Part shown: piece by piece, positions 8,008-16,103 of the stretch | How the letters are laid out: each line of letters begins with the position of its first letter | Numbering within the stretch: the stretch's first letter is position 1 | Assembly (NCBI GenBank): GCA_021650915.1 | Contig: CP091279.1 | Location: forward strand, 1,380,001 to 1,412,000 | Origin: Candidatus Brocadia sp. | GTDB lineage: Bacteria > Planctomycetota > Brocadiia > Brocadiales > Brocadiaceae | DNA length: 32,000 nt | Direction: 5' to 3' | The notes under the pieces: generated by a model | Seen by the model: the letters and a program-made list of their open reading frames with translations, nothing else | Databases searched by the model: none | What the model was told of the DNA's origin: nothing | Made by a program: the position numbers and the translations under genes

Positions 8008-8447
8008 CAAATATTTGGGATGATTTAATGGGTTCTGATGACCCAATTTATGTTGTTCAAACTTCCACTAAAGCAATCCAACGTTGCCTCCTCATGACCA
8101 CCGACCCCGGCGATCTTGTTCTGGACATTACTTGCGGCAGCGGCACTACTGCTCACGTCGCCGAGAATTGGGGCAGAAGGTGGATCACTTGCGATACTTC
8201 CCGTGTCGCAATAACCCTTGCCAAGCAGCGCCTGATGACGGCGGTGTATGATTATTATGAACTTGCCCATCCGCATGAAGGCGTTGGCAGTGGTTTTCAA
8301 TACAAGACCGTTCCGCACATCACCTTAAAAAGCATTGCCAACAACGAGCCTCCTGCCCAGGAAACCTTATATGACCAGCCGTTTATAGATAGCAAGCGAT
8401 TACGGGTAACCGGCCCATTCACCGTTGAGGCGGTTCCGGCACCAACA

Positions 8448-8524
8448 GCAGTGATGAGTGGCGAGGGGTTAGTGATTAGTGAAAGAAACTCGCTAACCAC
8501 TGACCACTATCCACTAACCACTGC
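8448..8524. repeat. cargo-less heptamer-armed palindromic insert inside the mod ORF
   Basis: GCAGTG...CACTGC closes an imperfect hairpin. The left arm carries GTTAGTG/ATTAGTG units. The right arm carries four tandem 7-mers, CTAACCA CTGACCA CTATCCA CTAACCA. It translates in frame as VMSGEGLVISERNSLTTDHYPLTTA. Confidence 0.55.
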
Positions 8525-8996
8525 AATAGCCCGTAGTGGCGAAACCCTTCGCCAAAGCAACTGGCGGGATGAACTGCTGCGCGCAGGCGTACGGGCAAAA
8601 GGCGGCAAGTTAATCGAATTTATACGGGTAGAGCCGTTAAGCGGCACACGTTATTTGCAGGCAGAGGCAGAGACGAAACCCACCCCTGACCCCTCCGGGG
8701 GAGGGGAAAAAACGCAGAGAGTATTGGTCTGCTTTGGCCCGGAACATGCACCACTAGAGCAACGCATGGTGGAACTGGCATTGGAAGAGGCCATGCACCT
8801 GAAACCCAAGCCACACATGGTCTTATTCTGTGCCTTTCAGTTTGACGAAGAAGCCGCAAAAGACATTGATGAAACAAACTGGCCCGGAGTTACCCTGCTC
8901 AAAGCCCAGATGAACGCCGACCTGCTCACCGATGACCTGAAAAAGAAACGCAGCAGCAACGAAAGCTTCTGGCTTATTGGTCAGCCGGATGTGAGA

Positions 8997-9421
8997 GTGA
9001 TTAGTGGAGAGTGGTTAGTGGATAGTGAAGGGAGGCAAATACTACTATATGACAACGGTAAAAAGTTATCGGGACTTGATAGTCTGGCAGAAATCAATCA
9101 CATTGACAAAAAAGATTTATGCGTTTACGCAGCTATTTCCCAAAGAAGAGATTTATGGACTGACTTCACAGATGCGCAGGGCAGCCGTATCTATTGCATG
9201 CAACATAGCGGAGGGACAGGCGAGGAACAGCACGGGGGAATTCATTCAGTTCCTGGGCATTTCCAAGGGGTCTTTAGCCGAATTGGAGACATTGCAGTTG
9301 CTGTCAAAAGAAATGAATTTCCTGACGAAGGAAAATTATTTGACTTTATCAAACAATTGCGCAGAGATAAACAAATTGTTGACTGCATTAATCAAATCAC
9401 TATCCACTCGCCACTAACCAC
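8997..9421 (+). mobile_element. IVS-like element: heptamer-repeat inverted arms enclosing a four-helix-bundle protein gene, embedded in the mod ORF
   Basis: The left arm has tandem 7-mers TTAGTGG AGAGTGG TTAGTGG ATAGTGA (9001-9028). The right arm is TCACTATCCACTCGCCACTAACCAC (9397-9421). GTGGTTAGTG+GATAGTGA pairs with its complement across a 7-nt bulge. Confidence 0.5.
9049..9417 (+). CDS. four-helix-bundle protein (23S rRNA intervening-sequence protein family, TIGR02436-like), 122 aa
   Basis: MTTVKSYRDLIVWQKSITLTKKIY...LTSQMRRAAVSIACNIAEGQARNSTGEFIQFLGISKGSLAELETLQLL carries the family hallmarks (dL.vWqk, Q.rRAa.Si..NIAEG, F..FL.iA.GS..El.t). The ATG at 9049 is preferred over the GTG at 9025. 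The gene lies entirely inside the mod ORF in the +1 frame. Confidence 0.8.
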   Translation: MTTVKSYRDLIVWQKSITLTKKIYAFTQLFPKEEIYGLTSQMRRAAVSIACNIAEGQARNSTGEFIQFLGISKGSLAELETLQLLSKEMNFLTKENYLTLSNNCAEINKLLTALIKSLSTRH

Positions 9422-9771
9422 GAAACACATGTCGCAGATCGAAATCCTCGGCTTCGATTACTACAACCCCAAAACCGGAACCGTGGAAAGCGGCGGCAAG
9501 GGCGACATTGCCATGTGGATGCTCGACACCGATTACGATGGCCGCAGTTTATTCCCTTCACAGGTATTCTTCCCCATGGCAGGAGACAAAGAAGGCTGGG
9601 CAACCTTGGCTAAAAACCTGAAGGCCGAGATTGATGAAGAAAAGATAGGGGCGTTCAGGGGAACGGTATCTTTGCCGTTTACCCCGGGCAAGGCAGTGGC
9701 TGTAAAGATCATTGATGCCAGGGGGATTGAGAGTTTGAAGATTATACGATTGTAGGTATCAAAGTAATTTT

Positions 9772-10038
9772 GTAACAATTTAGTTTTTTGAAAATCCCGA
9801 AGGGATGACATGATTATAGAAAAACCGCACCACCCTATTCAACCCCGTAAGGGTGAAATATCGAAAAAATAGCGATACTATGCCACCCCTTACGGGGTTC
9901 ACCATGATTGGATAACGCTATGCTATAATCATGACATCCCTTCGGGATTACAGAAACAATATTTTGTACACTCGCAGTGAGTGTGAGCGAAAGTACGCTG
10001 AATAGCTACGAGAATTTTTCAAAAAACTAAATTGTTAC
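9772..10038. mobile_element. 267-bp MITE (copy 1) with an 8-bp target-site duplication
   Basis: TIRs are GTAACAATTTAGTTTTTTGAAAA (9772-9794) and TTTTCAAAAAACTAAATTGTTAC (10016-10038). TSD GTAATTTT lies at 9764-9771 and 10039-10046. The paralogous empty site AAAGTAATTTTGTAGC is at 12263-12278. The interior has a long hairpin (AATCCCGAAGGGATGACATGATTATAG ... CTATAATCATGACATCCCTTCGGGATT). Confidence 0.8.
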
Positions 10039-10046
10039 GTAATTTT

Positions 10047-10449
10047 GTAGCTATGGCAAAACAAACCGATGGCTTCGGCGCAGATTCGGTTACACGGTAC
10101 AGTTTACAAGACACAGAACGTCTTGTTAGACGTTCCCGCGCAGGGCGTATAAAAGGAAAAATCCCGAAGGGATGGCATGATTATAGGAAAAAATACACCG
10201 CAATATTCAACCCCATAGGGGTGAAATATCGGGAAGATATTGTGCGGATGCTACCTGGCGCAGCACAGCCGCAACCAAATTTCCTTTATGAAAGCGGGGA
10301 GATTGCTTCGGAAAAGGCCCTCGCAATGACAGCGACCATGCACTTTGATGGCACACTGCACGTTGTCATTGCGAGTGAAGCGAAGCAATCTTTCACTCAT
10401 AAAAAACGGCACCTCCTGAAAGGGGTTTGTGAAAAAACTTACAAAAAAA
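10047..10449. repeat. composite repeat 'R2', copy 1 (non-coding despite a 149-codon ORF)
   Basis: About 98% identical by eye to 12274-12676 and partly present in reverse orientation at 445-527 and 2035-2147. It is built from MITE half-hairpins and the CTCGCAATGACA (10320-10331) / TGTCATTGCGAG (10364-10375) inverted pair. Confidence 0.75.
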
Positions 10450-10877
10450 GTAACAATTTAGTTTTTTTGGTAACACTTTAGTTTTTTGAAAAGGTAGGGG
10501 CGAAGCATTTGCCTGCTTGGGGTGTGAATGCATTTATGCCAGTTTATGGCAAATGCTTCGCCCCTACACCGTGCGGCAACATCGTTATTATGGTAATTTT
10601 TCAAAAAACTAAAGTGTTACGTTTTTTGAAAAATCCCGGAGGGATGACATGATTATAGAAAAAGCGCGCCACCATATTTAACCCCATAGGGGTGAAATAT
10701 CGGGAAGATAGCGATACTATGTCACCCCTTACGGGGTTAACCATAATTGCATAACGATATGCTATAATCATGTCATCCCTTCGGGATTAAAGAAGCACTA
10801 TTTTGTTCGCTTGTAGTGATTGTGAGCGAAAGCACGCTGAAGAGATACGAGAATTTTTCAAAAAGCTGCATTGTTAC
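10450..10877. mobile_element. MITE copy 2, whose left TIR is interrupted by a nested mini-MITE
   Basis: GTAACAATTTAGTTTTTTT (10450-10468) is followed by the nested element, then GTTTTTTGAAAAATCCCGG... through TTTTCAAAAAGCTGCATTGTTAC (10854-10877). The body is near-identical to 12677-12944. Confidence 0.7.
10470..10620. mobile_element. 151-bp mini-MITE nested inside the TIR of MITE copy 2
   Basis: TIRs are GTAACACTTTAGTTTTTTGAAAA (10470-10492) and TTTTCAAAAAACTAAAGTGTTAC (10598-10620). They flank the palindrome GTAGGGGCGAAGCATTTGCC...GGCAAATGCTTCGCCCCTAC (10494-10567). Flanking GTTTTTT(T)G is duplicated on both sides. Confidence 0.7.
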
Positions 10878-10914
10878 AAAGGTTTGAAGGTTTTAAAATT
10901 ATGGAGGCGCATGT

Positions 10915-11235
10915 ATGGGAAGGATATGTCATATAGAATTGCCGAAAGACAAGATCGCCGATTTTTGCAGGAAGTGGAAGATTCGGGAATTTTCCATTTT
11001 TGGATCGGTATTAAGAGAGGACTTCCATCCTGACAGTGATATTGATGTGCTTGTAACCCTCTCGGAAGAGGCAAAGAATACCCTGTTTGACCTTGTTCAC
11101 ATGAAAGAAGAACTTGAGCAGATATTGGGAAGAGGGGTTGATTTGGTCAGCCGCCGGGGCATAGAATCCAGCAGAAACTATATCCGCAAAGAGGCTATTT
11201 TAGGAACAGCAGAGACCGTATATGCAGAGAGATAG
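10915..11235 (+). CDS. MNT-type minimal nucleotidyltransferase (antitoxin of an HEPN/MNT pair), 106 aa
   Basis: The signature is FGSVLREDFHPDSDIDVLV (GS-x9/10-D-x-D). SD GGAGG sits 7 nt before the ATG. The gene overlaps the downstream HEPN frame by 14 nt. Confidence 0.8.
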   Translation: MGRICHIELPKDKIADFCRKWKIREFSIFGSVLREDFHPDSDIDVLVTLSEEAKNTLFDLVHMKEELEQILGRGVDLVSRRGIESSRNYIRKEAILGTAETVYAER

Positions 11236-11551
11236 GGCCTACATGCTCGATATCATTGAGGCAGCAAAACTTGCTGTTTCATACATTGAAGACAAGAGAA
11301 GGGAAGATTTCTTAAAGGATGTTCAGTGTCAAGATGCCGTAATAAGGAGGCTTGAAATTATCGGTGAAGCGGCACGATGCATAACGGATAAGACAAAGAC
11401 TGCTTTTCCCTGGCTTCCATGACGAGAGATGATTGGCATACGTAACATCATGATCCATGAATATGATGATGTAGACCTTGATACAGTTTTTAAAACTGTA
11501 CAAAAAGACTTGCCATCGTTGATCAAATCCCTTGAAGAAATTCTAAAATAA
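11222..11551 (+). pseudogene. HEPN/DUF86 toxin gene with an in-frame TGA (11420-11422) upstream of the R-x4-H motif
   Basis: MQRDRAYMLDIIEAAKLAVSYIED...LEIIGEAARCITDKTKTAFPWLP*REMIGIRNIMIHEYDDVDLDTVFKTVQKDLPSLIKSLEEILK*. The same frame stays DUF86-like through the stop. RNIMIH (11441-11458) lies after the stop. Confidence 0.75.
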
Positions 11552-11567
11552 ATGCAGGAGATATATA

Positions 11568-11858
11568 ATGGGAAGGGACGATGTCCTTGCTATTTTGCGA
11601 GACTTTAAACAGCGCTTTGCCGAGAAATATGGAATCCTGGAGATAGGCATCTTTGGTTCAACTGCGCGGGATGATGCGCGGGAAGACAGCGATGTTGACA
11701 TCTGCATTAAAACAAAGACTCCTGATCCATTTGCCATTGTCCATATCAAGGAAGAGATTGAAAGCCGGATACGGAAACATGTTGATATAGTCCGGATACG
11801 TGAAAAGATGAACCCTTTTCTTAGGGAGCGCATAGAAAAAGAGGGCATCTATGCCTGA
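11568..11858 (+). CDS. MNT-type minimal nucleotidyltransferase (antitoxin), 96 aa
   Basis: The signature is FGSTARDDAREDSDVDICI. SD GGAG lies upstream. Its stop overlaps the start of the next gene by 8 nt. Confidence 0.8.
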   Translation: MGRDDVLAILRDFKQRFAEKYGILEIGIFGSTARDDAREDSDVDICIKTKTPDPFAIVHIKEEIESRIRKHVDIVRIREKMNPFLRERIEKEGIYA

Positions 11859-12240
11859 CAAGAACCTTGTTCTGTCAATACTTCAACAGATAGATGAGTC
11901 CCTTGAAAAAATCAAGGGCCGTGCGGTACAAATTTATAGCGCAGATGATTTCACCAATTCGCCGTCCGGTATGGAAAAGTTAGACAGCATCTGTATGCAG
12001 TTCATCGCTGTCGGAGAAGCCTTGAAAAAGATAGACAAAATAACCGGCGGTGGCCTTCTCTCTAAATATCCTGAAATAGACTGGAAAGGCGTCATGGGTT
12101 TTCGGGATATCATAGCCCATCATTATTTTGATATTGACGCGGAAGAGATATTCTGGATATGCGCTCATGAATTATCGCCGTTATCCGCTGCTATTAAAAG
12201 TATGATAAAGGAGATGATGCAAGGGGGATTGAGAGTTTGA
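11851..12240 (+). CDS. HEPN/DUF86 domain protein (toxin), 129 aa, with its 3' end running into a duplicated copy of the mod 3' end
   Basis: FIAVGEALKKI and the R-x4-H motif RDIIAHHYFDID are present. The last ~25 nt (from 12215) are a copy of the mod terminus 9713-9755, read in another frame. Confidence 0.75.
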   Translation: MPDKNLVLSILQQIDESLEKIKGRAVQIYSADDFTNSPSGMEKLDSICMQFIAVGEALKKIDKITGGGLLSKYPEIDWKGVMGFRDIIAHHYFDIDAEEIFWICAHELSPLSAAIKSMIKEMMQGGLRV

Positions 12241-12676
12241 AGATTATACGATTGTAGGTATCAAAGTAATTTTGTAGCTATGGCAAAACAAACCGGTGGC
12301 TTCGGCGCAGATTCGGTTACACGGTACAGTTTACAAGACACAGAACGTCTTGTTAGACGTTCCCACGCAGGGCATATAAAAGGAAAAATCCCGAAGGGAT
12401 GGCATGATTATAGGAAAAAATACACCGCAATATTCAACCCCATAGGGGTGAAATATCGGGAAGATATTGTGCGGATGCTACCTGGCGCAGCACAGCCGCA
12501 ACCAAATTTCCTTTATGAAAGCGGGGAGATTGCTTCGGAAAAGGCTCTCGCAATGACAGCGACCATGCACTTTGATGGCACACGGCACGTTGTCATTGCG
12601 AGTGAGGCGAAGCAATCTTTCACTCATAAAAAACGGCACATCCTGAAAGGGGTTTGTGAAAAAACTTACAAAAAAA
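12215..12676. repeat. second copy of the mod-3'-end segment plus composite repeat 'R2' (copy 2)
   Basis: 12215-12273 matches 9713-9771 with 1 mismatch seen. 12274-12676 matches 10047-10449 with about 8 differences seen. It lacks the MITE present at 9772-10038. Confidence 0.8.
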
Positions 12677-12944
12677 GTAACAATTTAGTTTTTTGAAAAA
12701 TCCCGGAGAGATGACATGATTATAGAAAAAGCGCGCCACCATATTTAACCCCATAGGGGTGAAATATCGGGAAGATAGCGATACTATGTCACCCCTTACG
12801 GGGTTAACCATAATTGCATAACGATATGCTATAATCATGTCATCCCTTCGGGATTAAAGGAGCACTATTTTGTTCACTCGTACTGATGGTGAGCAAAAGT
12901 ACGCTGAATAGATGCGAGAATTTTTCAAAAAGCTAAATTGTTAC
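12677..12944. mobile_element. 268-bp MITE (copy 3)
   Basis: TIRs are GTAACAATTTAGTTTTTTGAAAA (12677-12699) and TTTTCAAAAAGCTAAATTGTTAC (12922-12944). CAAAAAAA is present on both flanks, which is a possible 8-bp TSD but is low-complexity. Confidence 0.7.
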
Positions 12945-12971
12945 CAAAAAAAAGAAGTTTTTATACAGTAA

Positions 12972-13293
12972 TACTCTATAGTCGATGCGGCAAAAGAGGC
13001 AGTTTCTTTTGCTCACGGGAAGACCAGAAAATCGTTTGATGAAAACCGAATGCTGATGCTTTCCCCTGGTTAAGGATATTGGGATTATAGGCGAGGCTGC
13101 CACCCATGTTTCAGAGAGTTGTCGCGAGGAGTTTCCCCATATCCCCTGGAGAAGTATAACCAACATGAGAAACCGGCTAATCCATGCCTATTTTGATATA
13201 AATCTGGATATTGTCTGGCAGACGGTTACCGATAACCTTCCCTCTCTCATAACCGAATTTGATAAAATACCTTCCCTTAAGAAGGATTTATGA
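12972..13293 (+). pseudogene. HEPN/DUF86 remnant: 5'-truncated and frameshifted, with its stop overlapping the res start
   Basis: Frame 0 reads YSIVDAAKEAVSFAHGKTRKSFDENRMLMLSPG* (stop at 13071). Frame +1 continues LVKDIGIIGEAATHVSESCREEFPHIPWRSITNMRNRLIHAYFDINLDIVWQTV...KKDL*. One extra C in the CCCC run at about 13063-13066 explains the shift. No start codon remains. Confidence 0.7.
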
Positions 13294-16103
13294 AGAAGAT
13301 AGATAAACTCATCATCAATTCCCCTTACGAAGAACCACGGCAGTATTGGGAATATGTAAGGGATACACGGGAATTCGTCAGGCAGGATGGCAGAAGACCC
13401 GCAGGGTATGTTGTGGCTTCAGAAAGCTCAAAATCATTTGATGACCCCGGGACTTTTATCGAGATTAAGCTGGTCAATACTATCCGTCCAAGGGTAAAAA
13501 AGTGGAGAGAAGACGGCTATCCAGGGATTGCAGGGATTACCAAAAGATTGCTGCAGCACTGGCAAGACCCGGAAGAACGCAAAGACCGGAGATTTTTCTT
13601 TTGCCAGCTGGAGGCCATTGAAACCCTGATATGGCTTACCGAAGCGCCGGAAGCAGACCGCACAGGTATTGACATTTCCGGCGATGGCGGCGATTTTTCG
13701 CGATGGTGCTGCAAGATGGCTACGGGTTCGGGCAAGACGATTGTCATGAGCATGCTCATTGCATGGCAAATCCTGAATAAAGCAGCCAATAACAAAGACA
13801 CGCACTTCTCCAAAAATATATTGGTTGTTGCGCCGGGCTTGACGGTCCGCAATCGTTTATCGGTGTTGAATCCTTTCGACAAAGAAAACTACTATGAGGA
13901 ATTCAACATCGTTCCATCGGGTTTGATGGAATCACTTCGGCAGGGAAAGGTAAAGATCGTCAACTGGCACACTCTTGCCTGGGACAGCGAAGAAAGACTG
14001 GCAAAGAAGAAGACCGTTGATAAACGGGGAGCCAAAAGCGATGAGGCATATGTGCGGGATGTGCTGGGCGATATGGCAAATGCAACAAATCTTATCGTTA
14101 TTAACGATGAGGCGCACCATGCCTGGCGTGTTCCGGCAGAAAGCAAAATGAAAGGCGTAAAGAAAGAAGATATTGAAGAAAGCACCGTTTGGGTGGGTGG
14201 ACTGGACAGGATTCACAGGGCAAGGGGCATCATCCGGTGTTTCGACTTATCGGCCACGCCATTTGCCCCATCAGGCAAAAAGGCAAATGAAGAGGCCTTA
14301 TTTCCCTGGATTGTCAGTGATTTCGGGTTGAATGATGCGATTGAGTCTGGATTGGTAAAAACGCCGCGGGTTGTCATTCGTGATGATGCCAATGTTGATG
14401 AGAATCTGCGTTCACGGCTCTATCATATTTACATGGATGCCACCGTGAAAGATGACATCAACCGGAAGGCAGAAGAAGGAGAACCGCTTCCCGACCTCAT
14501 TAAAAATGCCTATCTGCTTTTAGGTAAGGACTGGAAGGCCGCTAAAGACGACTGGGAAAAGGCCGGACATAAAATTCCACCGGTGATGATCACCGTTGCA
14601 AACACCACATACACATCAGCCCGCATCAAATATGCCTTTGATCACGATGCCTTTTTCCTGTCCGTTGCCGGGCTGGTGGATTTGTGCGATCAGGAAAAAA
14701 TACTGCAGATTGACAGCAGGATCCTTGACAAAGCAGAAGCCGAAACAGAAGAAGCAGGCACTGACGGAAAAAAACCAGAGGAAAACGATGACAATCAAAC
14801 CAAAGAGAAGAGGCTAACCAAAAAGCAACAGGCTGAATTATTAAGGAAAACGGTTGACACCGTTGGCAAGACCGGAGAGCCAGGCGAACAGATACAAAAT
14901 GTGATTTCTGTAGGCATGCTCAGCGAAGGTTGGGATGCCAAAACAGTTACCCACATTATGGGCCTGCGGGCATTTAGCAGCCAGTTATTGTGCGAACAGG
15001 TGGTAGGTCGTGGTTTACGGAGGACTTCGTACGATGTAGGAAAAGACGGTTTATTTGAACCAGAGTATGTGAACATCTTCGGCGTGCCTTTCACCTTTAT
15101 GCCTCACGAGGGGACCGACGGGCCGCCCCCACCGCCTCCACCCCCAAAAACCAGGATTGAACCGGTGGAAGAAAAGGCGGAACACAAAATTTCATTCCCG
15201 AACATCCTGAGGATTGACCATGTGTACCAACCGCAACTGTCTCTTAACCTGGAAAAGGTCAAACCGCTTGAACTTGACCCGTACGAATCAATCACAGGGG
15301 CAGAGTTAGCCGCAATTATCGCGGGAAAGCCAAATCCGGCGGCGCTGACTGAGATCGATTTAAAAGAAATTGGCGAGAAATTCCGCATGCAGTCTATCAT
15401 TTTCAGAATTGCATCCTCGATTTACAATTCAGAAAAAAAACCAGACTGGAAGGGAAGCAAGGAAACGTTTTTGATTCAGCTTATTGGCATTATTGAACAA
15501 TTCATTTATTCGGACAGAATCAGGATAAAAAATCCGTTATTCAATGAGAATGAAGTAAAAAAGAGAATCCTGAGTATGCTGAATTTGAACAAGGTCATTC
15601 AGCATATCTGGAATGAACTACGGGCAGAGAACACGACTCAGCTCACTCCGGTTTTTGACAAGGAACATCCTATCCGTTCGACTGCTGATGTGCGCACCTG
15701 GTGGACAAGCAAACCATGTGAGGGTTTTGGGAAAAGCCATATCAATTTTACTGTAGTTGACAGCAAGATGGAATTTCTTGAGGCACGAACCATCAATGAT
15801 TGCGAGGCTGTGGAATCATTCGTGAAGAACGACCATTTAGGTTTCGCCATTCTTTACAACCATCAGGGAGTGATCAGGAGATATTTTCCCGATTTTATTA
15901 TCAGATTGAAGAATGGAGAATATCTCATTCTTGAAACCAAAGGGCACGATAGTGAACAGAATAAAACCAAGAGGGCATTTTTAGACGAGTGGTGCAAGGC
16001 AGTGAATCATCATGGTGGTTTTGGCAAGTGGACTGGGGCGGTGTCTTTCGATCCCAACGACCTTGAAAAGGTGTTACAAGATGTCAATAATTATACGAAA
16101 TAA
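13290..16103 (+). CDS. res: Type III restriction enzyme Res subunit: SF2 helicase/ATPase with a C-terminal PD-(D/E)xK-like nuclease (937 aa)
   Basis: Walker A is KMATGSGKT and the DEAH box is VINDEAHHAW. Motif VI-like GRGLRR is present. The C-terminal YFPDFIIRLKNGEYLILETKG is a D...E-x-K nuclease core. The frame is uninterrupted. Confidence 0.85.
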   Translation: MKKIDKLIINSPYEEPRQYWEYVRDTREFVRQDGRRPAGYVVASESSKSFDDPGTFIEIKLVNTIRPRVKKWREDGYPGIAGITKRLLQHWQDPEERKDRRFFFCQLEAIETLIWLTEAPEADRTGIDISGDGGDFSRWCCKMATGSGKTIVMSMLIAWQILNKAANNKDTHFSKNILVVAPGLTVRNRLSVLNPFDKENYYEEFNIVPSGLMESLRQGKVKIVNWHTLAWDSEERLAKKKTVDKRGAKSDEAYVRDVLGDMANATNLIVINDEAHHAWRVPAESKMKGVKKEDIEESTVWVGGLDRIHRARGIIRCFDLSATPFAPSGKKANEEALFPWIVSDFGLNDAIESGLVKTPRVVIRDDANVDENLRSRLYHIYMDATVKDDINRKAEEGEPLPDLIKNAYLLLGKDWKAAKDDWEKAGHKIPPVMITVANTTYTSARIKYAFDHDAFFLSVAGLVDLCDQEKILQIDSRILDKAEAETEEAGTDGKKPEENDDNQTKEKRLTKKQQAELLRKTVDTVGKTGEPGEQIQNVISVGMLSEGWDAKTVTHIMGLRAFSSQLLCEQVVGRGLRRTSYDVGKDGLFEPEYVNIFGVPFTFMPHEGTDGPPPPPPPPKTRIEPVEEKAEHKISFPNILRIDHVYQPQLSLNLEKVKPLELDPYESITGAELAAIIAGKPNPAALTEIDLKEIGEKFRMQSIIFRIASSIYNSEKKPDWKGSKETFLIQLIGIIEQFIYSDRIRIKNPLFNENEVKKRILSMLNLNKVIQHIWNELRAENTTQLTPVFDKEHPIRSTADVRTWWTSKPCEGFGKSHINFTVVDSKMEFLEARTINDCEAVESFVKNDHLGFAILYNHQGVIRRYFPDFIIRLKNGEYLILETKGHDSEQNKTKRAFLDEWCKAVNHHGGFGKWTGAVSFDPNDLEKVLQDVNNYTK

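Follow-up and report, generated by a model that had tools for sequence, protein, structure and literature searches.

Rickettsia palindromic elements (RPEs) are short palindromes that lie in frame within protein-coding genes and add a tolerated peptide to the product, and in REPIN-RAYT systems one gene has palindromic repeats on either side, inverted relative to each other, that are also found gene-less elsewhere in the genome. The intervening sequences (IVSs) of 23S rRNA, known from Coxiella burnetii, Leptospira and bacteria of the candidate phyla radiation (CPR), enclose an open reading frame (ORF) of ~120 aa for a four-helix-bundle (4HB) protein within a long inverted-repeat stem. For Coxiella burnetii, an IVS has been described whose 28-bp terminal stem is cleaved by RNase III and whose S23p ORF is preceded by tandem GACAGAT heptamers (PMC4990558). 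We analyzed a 32,000-nt stretch of DNA from Candidatus Brocadia sp. (contig CP091279.1; hereafter the window), in which two heptamer-armed palindromic elements lie within mod, the methyltransferase gene of a Type III restriction-modification (R-M) system. Element A (8448..8524) is a hairpin without cargo, while element B (8997 to 9428) encloses a complete 4HB gene that is read in another frame than mod. Our analysis indicated that element B is probably a frame-neutral passenger cassette with the same build as the 23S-rRNA IVSs.

The left arm of element B (8997..9028) reads GTGATTA GTGGAGA GTGGTTA GTGGATA GTGA and the right arm (9397..9428) reads TCACTAT CCACTCG CCACTAA CCAC... The two arms are 32 nt long and 81% complementary, with a core (8997-9020/9398-9421) that is 88% complementary. 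A preliminary description of this DNA had placed the element at 8997-9421; the heptamer arms were found as described, but the right arm is ~7 nt longer and reaches 9428. Tandem Repeats Finder (TRF) detected period-7 arrays at 9002-9027 in this left arm and at 8493-8522 in element A; the arrays were short (3-4 units) and imperfect, with 78-82% matches. The terminal inverted repeats of element B form a long stem around the ORF. A Shine-Dalgarno (SD)-like GGGAGG, read from the sequence, lies on the + strand just inside the left arm (9030..9035), the 4HB gene follows on the same strand (9049..9417; 122 aa), and its final codons and TAA stop are overlapped by the right arm. The gene had been assigned, together with its own SD, to the IVS family, and profile searches bore this out with an E-value of 6.9e-39 and 132.8 bits for PF05635 (cut-off 33.8), 128.3 bits for TIGR02436 (cut-off 24) and a score of 153.4 for NF008911 (cut-off 137). 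The protein matched PDB entry 2gsc_A, a pentameric Xanthomonas protein, by sequence similarity alone (E = 1.5e-22). It also contained the RxxxSxxxNxxE motif, with R44, S48, N52 and E55 invariant in the family alignment, which is the conserved motif of Xcc0516 homologues (PMC3936711). In the orthologous cassette of locus L089, AGGAGG was located 9 nt 5' of the ATG. A search for a sigma-70-like promoter on the + strand within 8300-9750 found none. A 36-nt segment at the 5' end of the 4HB gene (9083-9118; AAGTTATCGGGACTTGATAGTCTGGCAGAAATCAAT) was identical in the window and L089 despite a protein identity of 61%, which hints at nucleotide-level constraint or recombination.

The mod frame runs uninterrupted through both elements, with the 4HB codons beginning 1 nt after the mod codons, and the arm translations in the Mod frame include VISGEWLVDSEGR and ITIHSPLTTK. 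Like the 23S rRNA IVSs, element B has a homologous ~120-aa 4HB ORF within a long inverted-repeat stem, sits in sense orientation in the host transcript and has no detectable promoter of its own. This likeness, already drawn in the preliminary description, was strengthened by the tandem heptamers that lie in the Coxiella IVS stem upstream of the S23p ORF (PMC4990558). On the other hand, the host here is a protein-coding mod ORF, which demands a frame-neutral cassette, and no stop interrupts the host frame. Nor is the cassette located in a 23S or 16S rRNA gene: Rfam gave no match for the elements and identified no rRNA in the window or in 12 related loci. The SD is intact here while it is weak or removed in Coxiella, and RNase III cleavage, established for Coxiella, would be conjectural here.

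Element A has arms of 35 nt each (left, 8448-8482; right, 8490-8524) that are 77% complementary and are separated by a 7-nt loop (8483-8489), which confirmed its description as a cargo-less heptamer hairpin. Its RNA fold had an energy of -39.3 kcal/mol (z = -7.25) that none of 200 shuffles matched. The antisense strand folded just as stably (-42.1 kcal/mol), and a z-score of -5.1 was obtained with DNA folding parameters; the equal foldability of the opposite strand indicates a palindrome at the DNA level. The mod-frame translation of the element is AVMSGEGLVISERNSLTTDHYPLTT. Its site is a Mod linker that is hypervariable across the family and holds different hairpin-like peptides in other lineages, and the AlphaFold2 (AF2) model of the window Mod fragment gave predicted local distance difference test (pLDDT) values of 26-37 over it. 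The two elements had been described as lying inside mod; both are indeed in the mod frame, but element A occupies a hypervariable linker and does not interrupt conserved sequence. The left arms of A and B are 85% identical and the right arms 77%, and the two elements are likely to be the cargo-less and the gene-carrying forms of one palindromic cassette family. Element A behaves like RPEs and other in-frame MITEs (miniature inverted-repeat transposable elements), as does a cargo-less hairpin from the metagenome scan given below (L142:539-658), which is cleanly in register with the frame of a carB-like gene. The palindromes in mod leave the frame open, are missing in orthologues and occur in multiple copies. 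RPEs differ in having no gene and no heptamer build, whereas element B encloses an entire gene that overlaps mod in a different frame. At 8682-8706, in a third variable Mod linker, there was also a small G/C palindrome, CCCCTGACCCCTCCGGGGGAGGGG; homologues have other palindrome-derived peptides at the equivalent linker, and that of L006, a Bacteroidota locus with a cassette orthologous to element B, has a heptamer hairpin (LTTNHLPLTT).

With the Mod C-terminal fragment as query, homologues of two length classes were obtained, and 105 Mod homologues were aligned. A segment of ~140 residues between WLIGQPDV and VEVxGFDYYNPKT was present in 34 of them, while 71 had a short loop, typically IKSGDDKGKY, at the element B site. 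The homologues with an empty site included L088, the closest relative of the window Mod, whose N-part is 85% and C-part 95% identical to it. Since 71 of the 105 homologues, the closest one among them, are without the segment, element B is an insert, and the alignment shows that a surface loop of Type III Mod is polymorphic for this insertion. The earlier statement that both segments are insert-specific was upheld in this comparison, the site of element A being a variable linker. On a neighbour-joining tree of Mod, insert status required at least 9 changes, as against 27.6 when labels were shuffled, and the insert persisted in Mod proteins as divergent as ~58% identity. In this one loop, L006 and the window share arms of the AGTGGTT type and have 4HB proteins with 83% identity, while L089 and L090 have AGTTTTT arms and 4HB proteins 57-61% identical to that of the window; Mod identity among these four is similar (66-72% in the N-part, 84-92% in the C-part). 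The arms and the 4HB gene thus appear to be inherited as one unit. Neither a target-site duplication nor exact element ends could be defined at the Mod site, because the occupied loop is itself hypervariable. The same 4HB protein is present at this locus in four Brocadia assemblies, and the mod ORF of L001, the sister locus, is in frame across the cassette.

To see how general this arrangement is, the 4HB alignment was scanned against one genome per GTDB species, which gave 80 loci from many phyla at 45-71% identity. Arms were sought by Smith-Waterman comparison of the upstream flank with the reverse-complemented downstream flank, with pairs of flanks from mismatched loci as the control; duplex folding of 110+120-nt flanks was dropped in favor of this comparison since it over-extended the stems and gave poor z-scores. 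An arm score of at least 30 was obtained at 53 of 79 4HB loci and in only 4 of 150 mismatched-locus controls. The arms were nearly always tandem heptamers, with a unit that varied from locus to locus (AGTTTCA, AGTGACG, AGTCGGG, AGGGTGT, AGCGAAT and AGCTCTC, as compared to AGTGGTT in the window). AG was contained in 47 of the 53 arm heptamers and AGT in 26, giving AG(T/G) as the common core. The left arm stops a few to ~45 nt 5' of the start codon and is followed by an SD, and the right arm starts at, or shortly 5' of, the stop codon. The general cassette can be written, as far as these flanks indicate, as tandem AG(T/G)NNNN heptamers, SD, 4HB gene and complementary heptamers. Across the whole family, pairs of loci with similar heptamers had a 4HB identity of 53% versus 48% otherwise (P = 2e-4). 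When each locus was probed with 16 nt of its own arm, 20 of 54 loci had extra arrays within +/-5 kb, as against 17 of 528 for foreign probes, and several of these extra own-type arrays were cargo-less hairpins (three in the mod gene of L085, others in L054, L068, L077 and L087). A metagenome scan with AGTGGNNAGTGGNNAGTGG identified 80 AGTGG-array loci with 28 cargo-less hairpins, mostly intergenic, and a 4HB gene was nearby in only 3 of these 80; 'intragenic' hairpins in L110, L116 and L118 were left uncounted as they lay in spurious ORFs of high-GC contigs.

A flanked gene together with the same repeats lacking a gene elsewhere is also what is seen in REPIN-RAYT systems. The RAYT protein, however, is a Y1 (HUH) transposase with catalytic residues, while the 4HB protein is without an enzymatic domain, and REPINs are intergenic. 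The short tandemly repeated repetitive (STRR) sequences of cyanobacteria and the TAACTGA repeats of Beggiatoaceae resemble the arms in being tandem 7-nt units of the AGTNNNN type, and the arms of L085 (AGTTATC/AGTTGTC) are the complement of the Beggiatoaceae TAACTGA. These repeats differ in that they have been reported as direct arrays between genes, with no known origin, and the searchable literature held no link between them and a flanked 4HB gene or in-frame nesting.

At least 11 of the 80 loci found with the 4HB alignment were nested in a host ORF (L008, L011, L030, L038, L039, L043, L054, L065, L066, L069 and L085), and L009 and L025 were partially nested. Three more (L017, L021 and L076) were ambiguous: the +2 frame was free of stops, but the frames that cover the gene were short and the genomes rich in GC (P = 0.01-0.09). 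At the nested loci a same-strand host ORF extended 250-3800 nt upstream and 280-3400 nt downstream of the 4HB gene. As in the window, the host frame was +2 in every case, its codons beginning 1 nt ahead of those of the 4HB gene, and it was never +1. All hosts that Pfam could name among these nested loci were R-M-type DNA methyltransferases, namely five PF01555 Mods of two subfamilies and six Eco57I/MmeI/N6_Mtase enzymes, and in four of the latter (L043, L054, L065 and L066) the cassette was located just 5' of motif I. A phmmer search of 1.84 billion representative proteins with the host-frame 'shadow' peptide of the window returned 31 proteins; those that were read or named by Pfam were mostly Mod fragments, with one type IIG-like enzyme (P0245). 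The search also returned the sole non-methyltransferase nested host found, P0270, a C39-peptidase-domain protein of 1617 aa with a shadow-frame 4HB cassette at residues ~245-316 and the arm-like peptides VLGARSGVQG and VLGARSRVLG, indicating that the restriction to methyltransferases is strong but not absolute. A profile built from 15 host-frame shadow peptides was too diffuse, and gave a single meaningless match in a 5.8-billion-protein database. In the deposited NCBI annotation of the L001-L006 assemblies (five related genomes), the 4HB gene was called while the enclosing mod was omitted, even in cases with an intact ORF of 966-991 codons. Nested cassettes thus cause methyltransferases to be left out of annotation, so that R-M inventories and the interpretation of methylomes miss such enzymes.

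To assess selection on the two frames, we permuted synonymous codons within each 4HB gene, preserving the protein and its codon usage, and counted stops in the host frame. All 18 nested or candidate genes had 0 stops, as against a permutation mean of 3.1 (per-gene P of 0.0005 to 0.23). The window 4HB gene had 0 stops where permuted versions had a mean of 4.1 (P = 0.005). Chance is thereby excluded for the open host frame, and the claim that the mod frame stays open through both elements (ORF 8028-9755) held. In the host-equivalent frame of un-nested 4HB genes, on the other hand, 6.6 stops were observed where 8.0 were expected, and stops in the +1 frame were not depleted in either group. Between the window and L006 the amino acid identity was 83% in the 4HB frame, 59% in the host frame and 61% in the third frame. 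The pattern was the same for L005 and L008, and the host and third frames gave 0.59 versus 0.61, 0.49 versus 0.50 and 0.89 versus 0.89 in these comparisons. The fact that the 4HB frame is conserved while the host frame is no better conserved than the third frame shows, at the level of sequence comparison, that the 4HB frame is under protein-level purifying selection. By the same comparison the host frame across the cassette is stop-free with an unconserved peptide, in agreement with selection for openness only. The proposal that such elements are frame-neutral passengers was therefore supported, since every nested copy had 0 host-frame stops and the host peptide was conserved no better than that of the third frame.

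Cassettes that were not nested also followed the direction of their neighbors. Of the upstream neighbors, 53 of 63 shared the strand of the cassette (P = 3e-8), as did 48 of 61 downstream neighbors (P = 8e-6), with a median gap of ~55 nt, which is about the length of an arm. These neighbors were housekeeping operon genes and not R-M genes; the sites included sdhA|sdhB three times, sucC|sucD twice and nuoC|nuoD, as well as tRNA synthetases, ATP synthase and others. The link between 4HB and R-M genes, mentioned in the preliminary description, therefore holds for the nested copies in R-M methyltransferases but not for the un-nested copies in housekeeping operons. An earlier survey reported 18 such 4HB genes within cas operons, for example at cmr3|cmr2 (PMC3936711), in agreement with the habit of the un-nested cassettes of wedging between operon genes.

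If element B is a frame-neutral passenger, the cassette would be selfish or nearly neutral and would be transcribed by read-through of host units, and the predicted 4HB protein would be made by internal initiation at the cassette's own SD. Within a gene it would persist only as a frame-neutral, stop-free loop insertion. The sense-strand sites that tolerate it would be helices of rRNA, spacers within operons and surface loops in enzymes that are large and non-essential. The arm stem would be the counterpart, by analogy, of the stem that RNase III cuts in 23S-rRNA IVSs. Since 7 equals 1 modulo 3, gain or loss of one arm unit would shift the host frame by one and could re-phase it. A unit length not divisible by three would also mean that an array is read in all three phases, so that stop-free or variant units would be needed; the second unit of the window left arm, GTGGAGA, avoids a TAG that the host frame would otherwise meet.

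Several observations weigh against this passenger reading. No transposase, integrase or reverse transcriptase (RT) for the heptamer elements was found within the cassette or among the large ORFs of the window, and with no visible target duplication either, mobility is inferred from distribution only. The 4HB and Mod identities are roughly parallel among close relatives, and much of the spread may therefore have been vertical or by homologous recombination between mod alleles. A purely random passenger would not be expected to nest almost exclusively in R-M methyltransferases. We conjecture that genes whose imprecise deletion is lethal (an addictive R-M Mod, an essential operon, rRNA) are safe sites. 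Finally, the AF2 model of the window Mod fragment gave pLDDT values of 80-90 at host-frame residues 321-372, which are encoded by the left arm and, out of frame, by the first third of the 4HB gene, and values below 45 at residues 373-420. The high values could mean that the host-frame peptide is more than filler. We regard them as probably an alignment signal inherited from constraint on the 4HB frame; as evidence of a folded domain they were rejected, the host frame being no better conserved than the third.

The AF2 values also bear on whether the ~140-residue host-frame translation is an overprinted functional part of Mod that is retained for the benefit of the host. Besides the pLDDT values of 80-90 at residues 321-372, predicted strands pair across both arm translations, and the insert is maintained down to ~58% Mod identity. 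We consider this dual coding very improbable, since identity in the host frame is the same as in the third frame, which is unconstrained, the closest homologues are without the insert, confidence collapses at residues 373-420 and the alignment signal used by AF2 derives from constraint on the 4HB frame. It is just as hard to credit that slippage of the 7-nt unit toggles the mod frame as a phase-variation switch, in the manner of the tetra- and pentanucleotide repeats of Type III mod genes. Phase variation is classic in the mod genes of Type III systems, the arrays are located within mod and 7 is no multiple of 3. However, the arrays have just 3-4 imperfect units with 78-82% matches, four Brocadia assemblies have the same 4HB at the locus with the one mod ORF that was read (L001) in frame, and the same arms surround intergenic cassettes, where no frame exists. 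An RNA-processing module deserves more weight, though we regard it as unlikely. Here RNase III would cut the stem in the mod transcript, freeing a 4HB mini-mRNA and inactivating or down-tuning mod mRNA, and the element would be a post-transcriptional regulator of the R-M system. The stems are highly stable (z = -7.25 for element A, and z = -3.75), the stem encloses precisely the SD and the ORF, an internal promoter was not found and the homologous Coxiella IVS stem is cut by RNase III (PMC4990558). We examined the mismatches in 54 stems and counted 35 G·U, 47 A·C and 107 others. A structure selected in the sense RNA should tolerate G·U but not A·C; there was no excess of G·U over A·C on the sense strand, so that this test for RNA-level selection of the stems was negative. 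It looks as if arm complementarity is kept at the DNA level, or as if the arms are young or homogenised. The equally good folding of the antisense strand of element A, the purging of host-frame stops, which implies that ribosomes on uncut mRNA matter, and the presence of the identical cassette type in housekeeping operons, where R-M regulation is irrelevant, also speak against such a module. Cleavage by RNase III needs only a stem in the transcript, and may occur whatever the mismatch spectrum.

It is also conceivable, but doubtful, that the two elements are an autonomous/non-autonomous mobile pair in which the 4HB protein is a trans-acting specificity factor that keeps up or spreads the heptamer hairpins, the gene-carrying cassette is the 'master', hairpins such as element A are its miniature derivatives and movement possibly takes an RNA/cDNA route; RAYT genes with their REP/REPIN sequences would be the analogue. 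The arms of A and B are 85% identical, own-type arrays lie near cassettes in 20 of 54 loci versus 3% in controls, and the arm type accompanies the 4HB lineage both at one Mod site and family-wide (53% versus 48%, P = 2e-4). The strict sense orientation within transcription units is compatible with an RNA intermediate. Homology between 4HB proteins and Avd, the accessory protein of diversity-generating retroelements (DGRs), has been discussed (PMC10053308), and the window protein, which belongs to the same four-helix-bundle superfamily, had a weak match to the bAvd-like PF22296 (E = 1.6e-7, under the cut-off). Membership in a DGR as the Avd component was rejected, since the Avd equivalog NF033474 scored 25.5 against a cut-off of 80 and the window contained no RT domain in any of its large ORFs and no template repeat/variable repeat (TR/VR) pair. 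A mobile pair is further disfavored by the lack of a catalytic domain in the 122-aa helical bundle, by the lack of visible target duplications and by the rarity of a 4HB gene near AGTGG arrays (3 of 80 loci in the metagenome scan), and clustering of like hairpins is explained equally well by local duplication or slippage. A broader version of this idea, which we offer as speculation with rather low odds, is that the TIGR02436 4HB is the signature gene of a ubiquitous class of mobile cassettes with AG(T/G)NNNN arms that colonise rRNA, operon spacers and loops of R-M methyltransferases. Cassettes with the gene and hairpins without cargo would then form a single system, which would acquire a second frame free of stops when in a methyltransferase loop. 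This would explain the cyanobacterial and Beggiatoaceae heptamers as well as the rRNA IVSs. Avd kinship and strict sense orientation make it conceivable that such cassettes would spread through an RNA/cDNA intermediate or by 4HB-guided recognition of hairpins.

None of the components is new by itself: the 4HB protein family, the IVSs of rRNA, heptamer repeats and palindromic elements in frame have all been described before. In the searchable literature, in which subscription journals are thinly covered, we found no prior description of complementary heptamer arrays flanking 4HB genes generally, of the operon-wedged, sense-oriented placement of 4HB genes, or of 4HB genes nested in frame in methyltransferase genes with a purged second frame. 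As a heptamer-armed rider in host transcription units, a large uncharacterised family with thousands of 'four helix bundle protein' annotations would gain a genomic lifestyle. Three separate puzzles, namely rRNA IVSs, dispersed heptamer repeats and 4HB genes in R-M and CRISPR loci, would be joined. The nested cassettes also provide a clean natural case of long overlapping genes, with ~120 codons in two frames of which the second is selected for openness only.

The host locus is a Type III R-M region of a Candidatus Brocadia-like planctomycete. Its gene order is collinear with four Brocadia assemblies, and the nested 4HB protein is 99% identical to annotated Ca. Brocadia 'four helix bundle protein' entries. 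The 5' part of mod (5385..6621, + strand; PF01555, E = 3.2e-16) is truncated by an insertion sequence (IS) and is collinear with the intact mod of L001. The 3' part (8008..9755, + strand; ORF 8028-9755), which spans elements A and B in the host frame, was assigned by the PF01555 C-terminal motif and the homologue alignment. The IS, a 1386-bp ISH6-family element on the - strand (6622..8007), is not part of the heptamer elements. Its transposase ORF (6672-7904, - strand) matched the NF041731 ISH6 transposase with an E-value of 6.5e-57, under the cut-off of that profile, and a 9-bp target duplication, CAAATATTT, is present at 6613-6621 and 8008-8016. L001 is 99.9% identical and lacks the IS, which allowed the junctions to be mapped; its mod is uninterrupted and encodes 991 aa. 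The window copy of mod is thus a pseudogene, broken by the IS at 6622-8007. The res gene of the same system follows at 13290..16103 (+ strand; PF04851 ResIII; PADLOC REase_III, E = 3.8e-11), and the intact mod orthologue matched PADLOC MTase_III with an E-value of 4e-147. A Type III Mod is indicated by the beta-class N6/N4 methyltransferase domain, the Type III Mod profile and the adjacent Res helicase-nuclease.

Two MNT/HEPN (nucleotidyltransferase/HepT) toxin-antitoxin pairs lie between mod and res at 10915-12240, the first HepT apparently in two ORFs (11222-11422 and 11429-11551). The final 67 nt of mod and the next ~300 nt recur 2.5 kb downstream at 96-99% identity (9713-10338 versus 12215-12565), and this repeat of the mod end is suggestive of an insertion or duplication of the MNT/HEPN block between the two R-M genes. 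The toxin-antitoxin genes are flanked by three copies of a ~282-bp MITE-like element (9760-10041, 10599-10880 and 12666-12947; 81-92% identical), each with terminal inverted repeats and an internal palindrome, AATCCCGAAGGGATGACATGATTATAG; this repeat family is distinct from the heptamer elements. At the Bacteroidota locus L006 a PF01797 Y1/IS200-RAYT-type transposase gene lies between mod and res (6998-7459), and L006 was the only locus in which a PF01797 gene adjoined mod. In the window, the ~700-nt gap 5' of mod contains the inverted-repeat pairs 4707-4735 / 5116-5144 and 4865-5074, which are 93% and 73% complementary, respectively.

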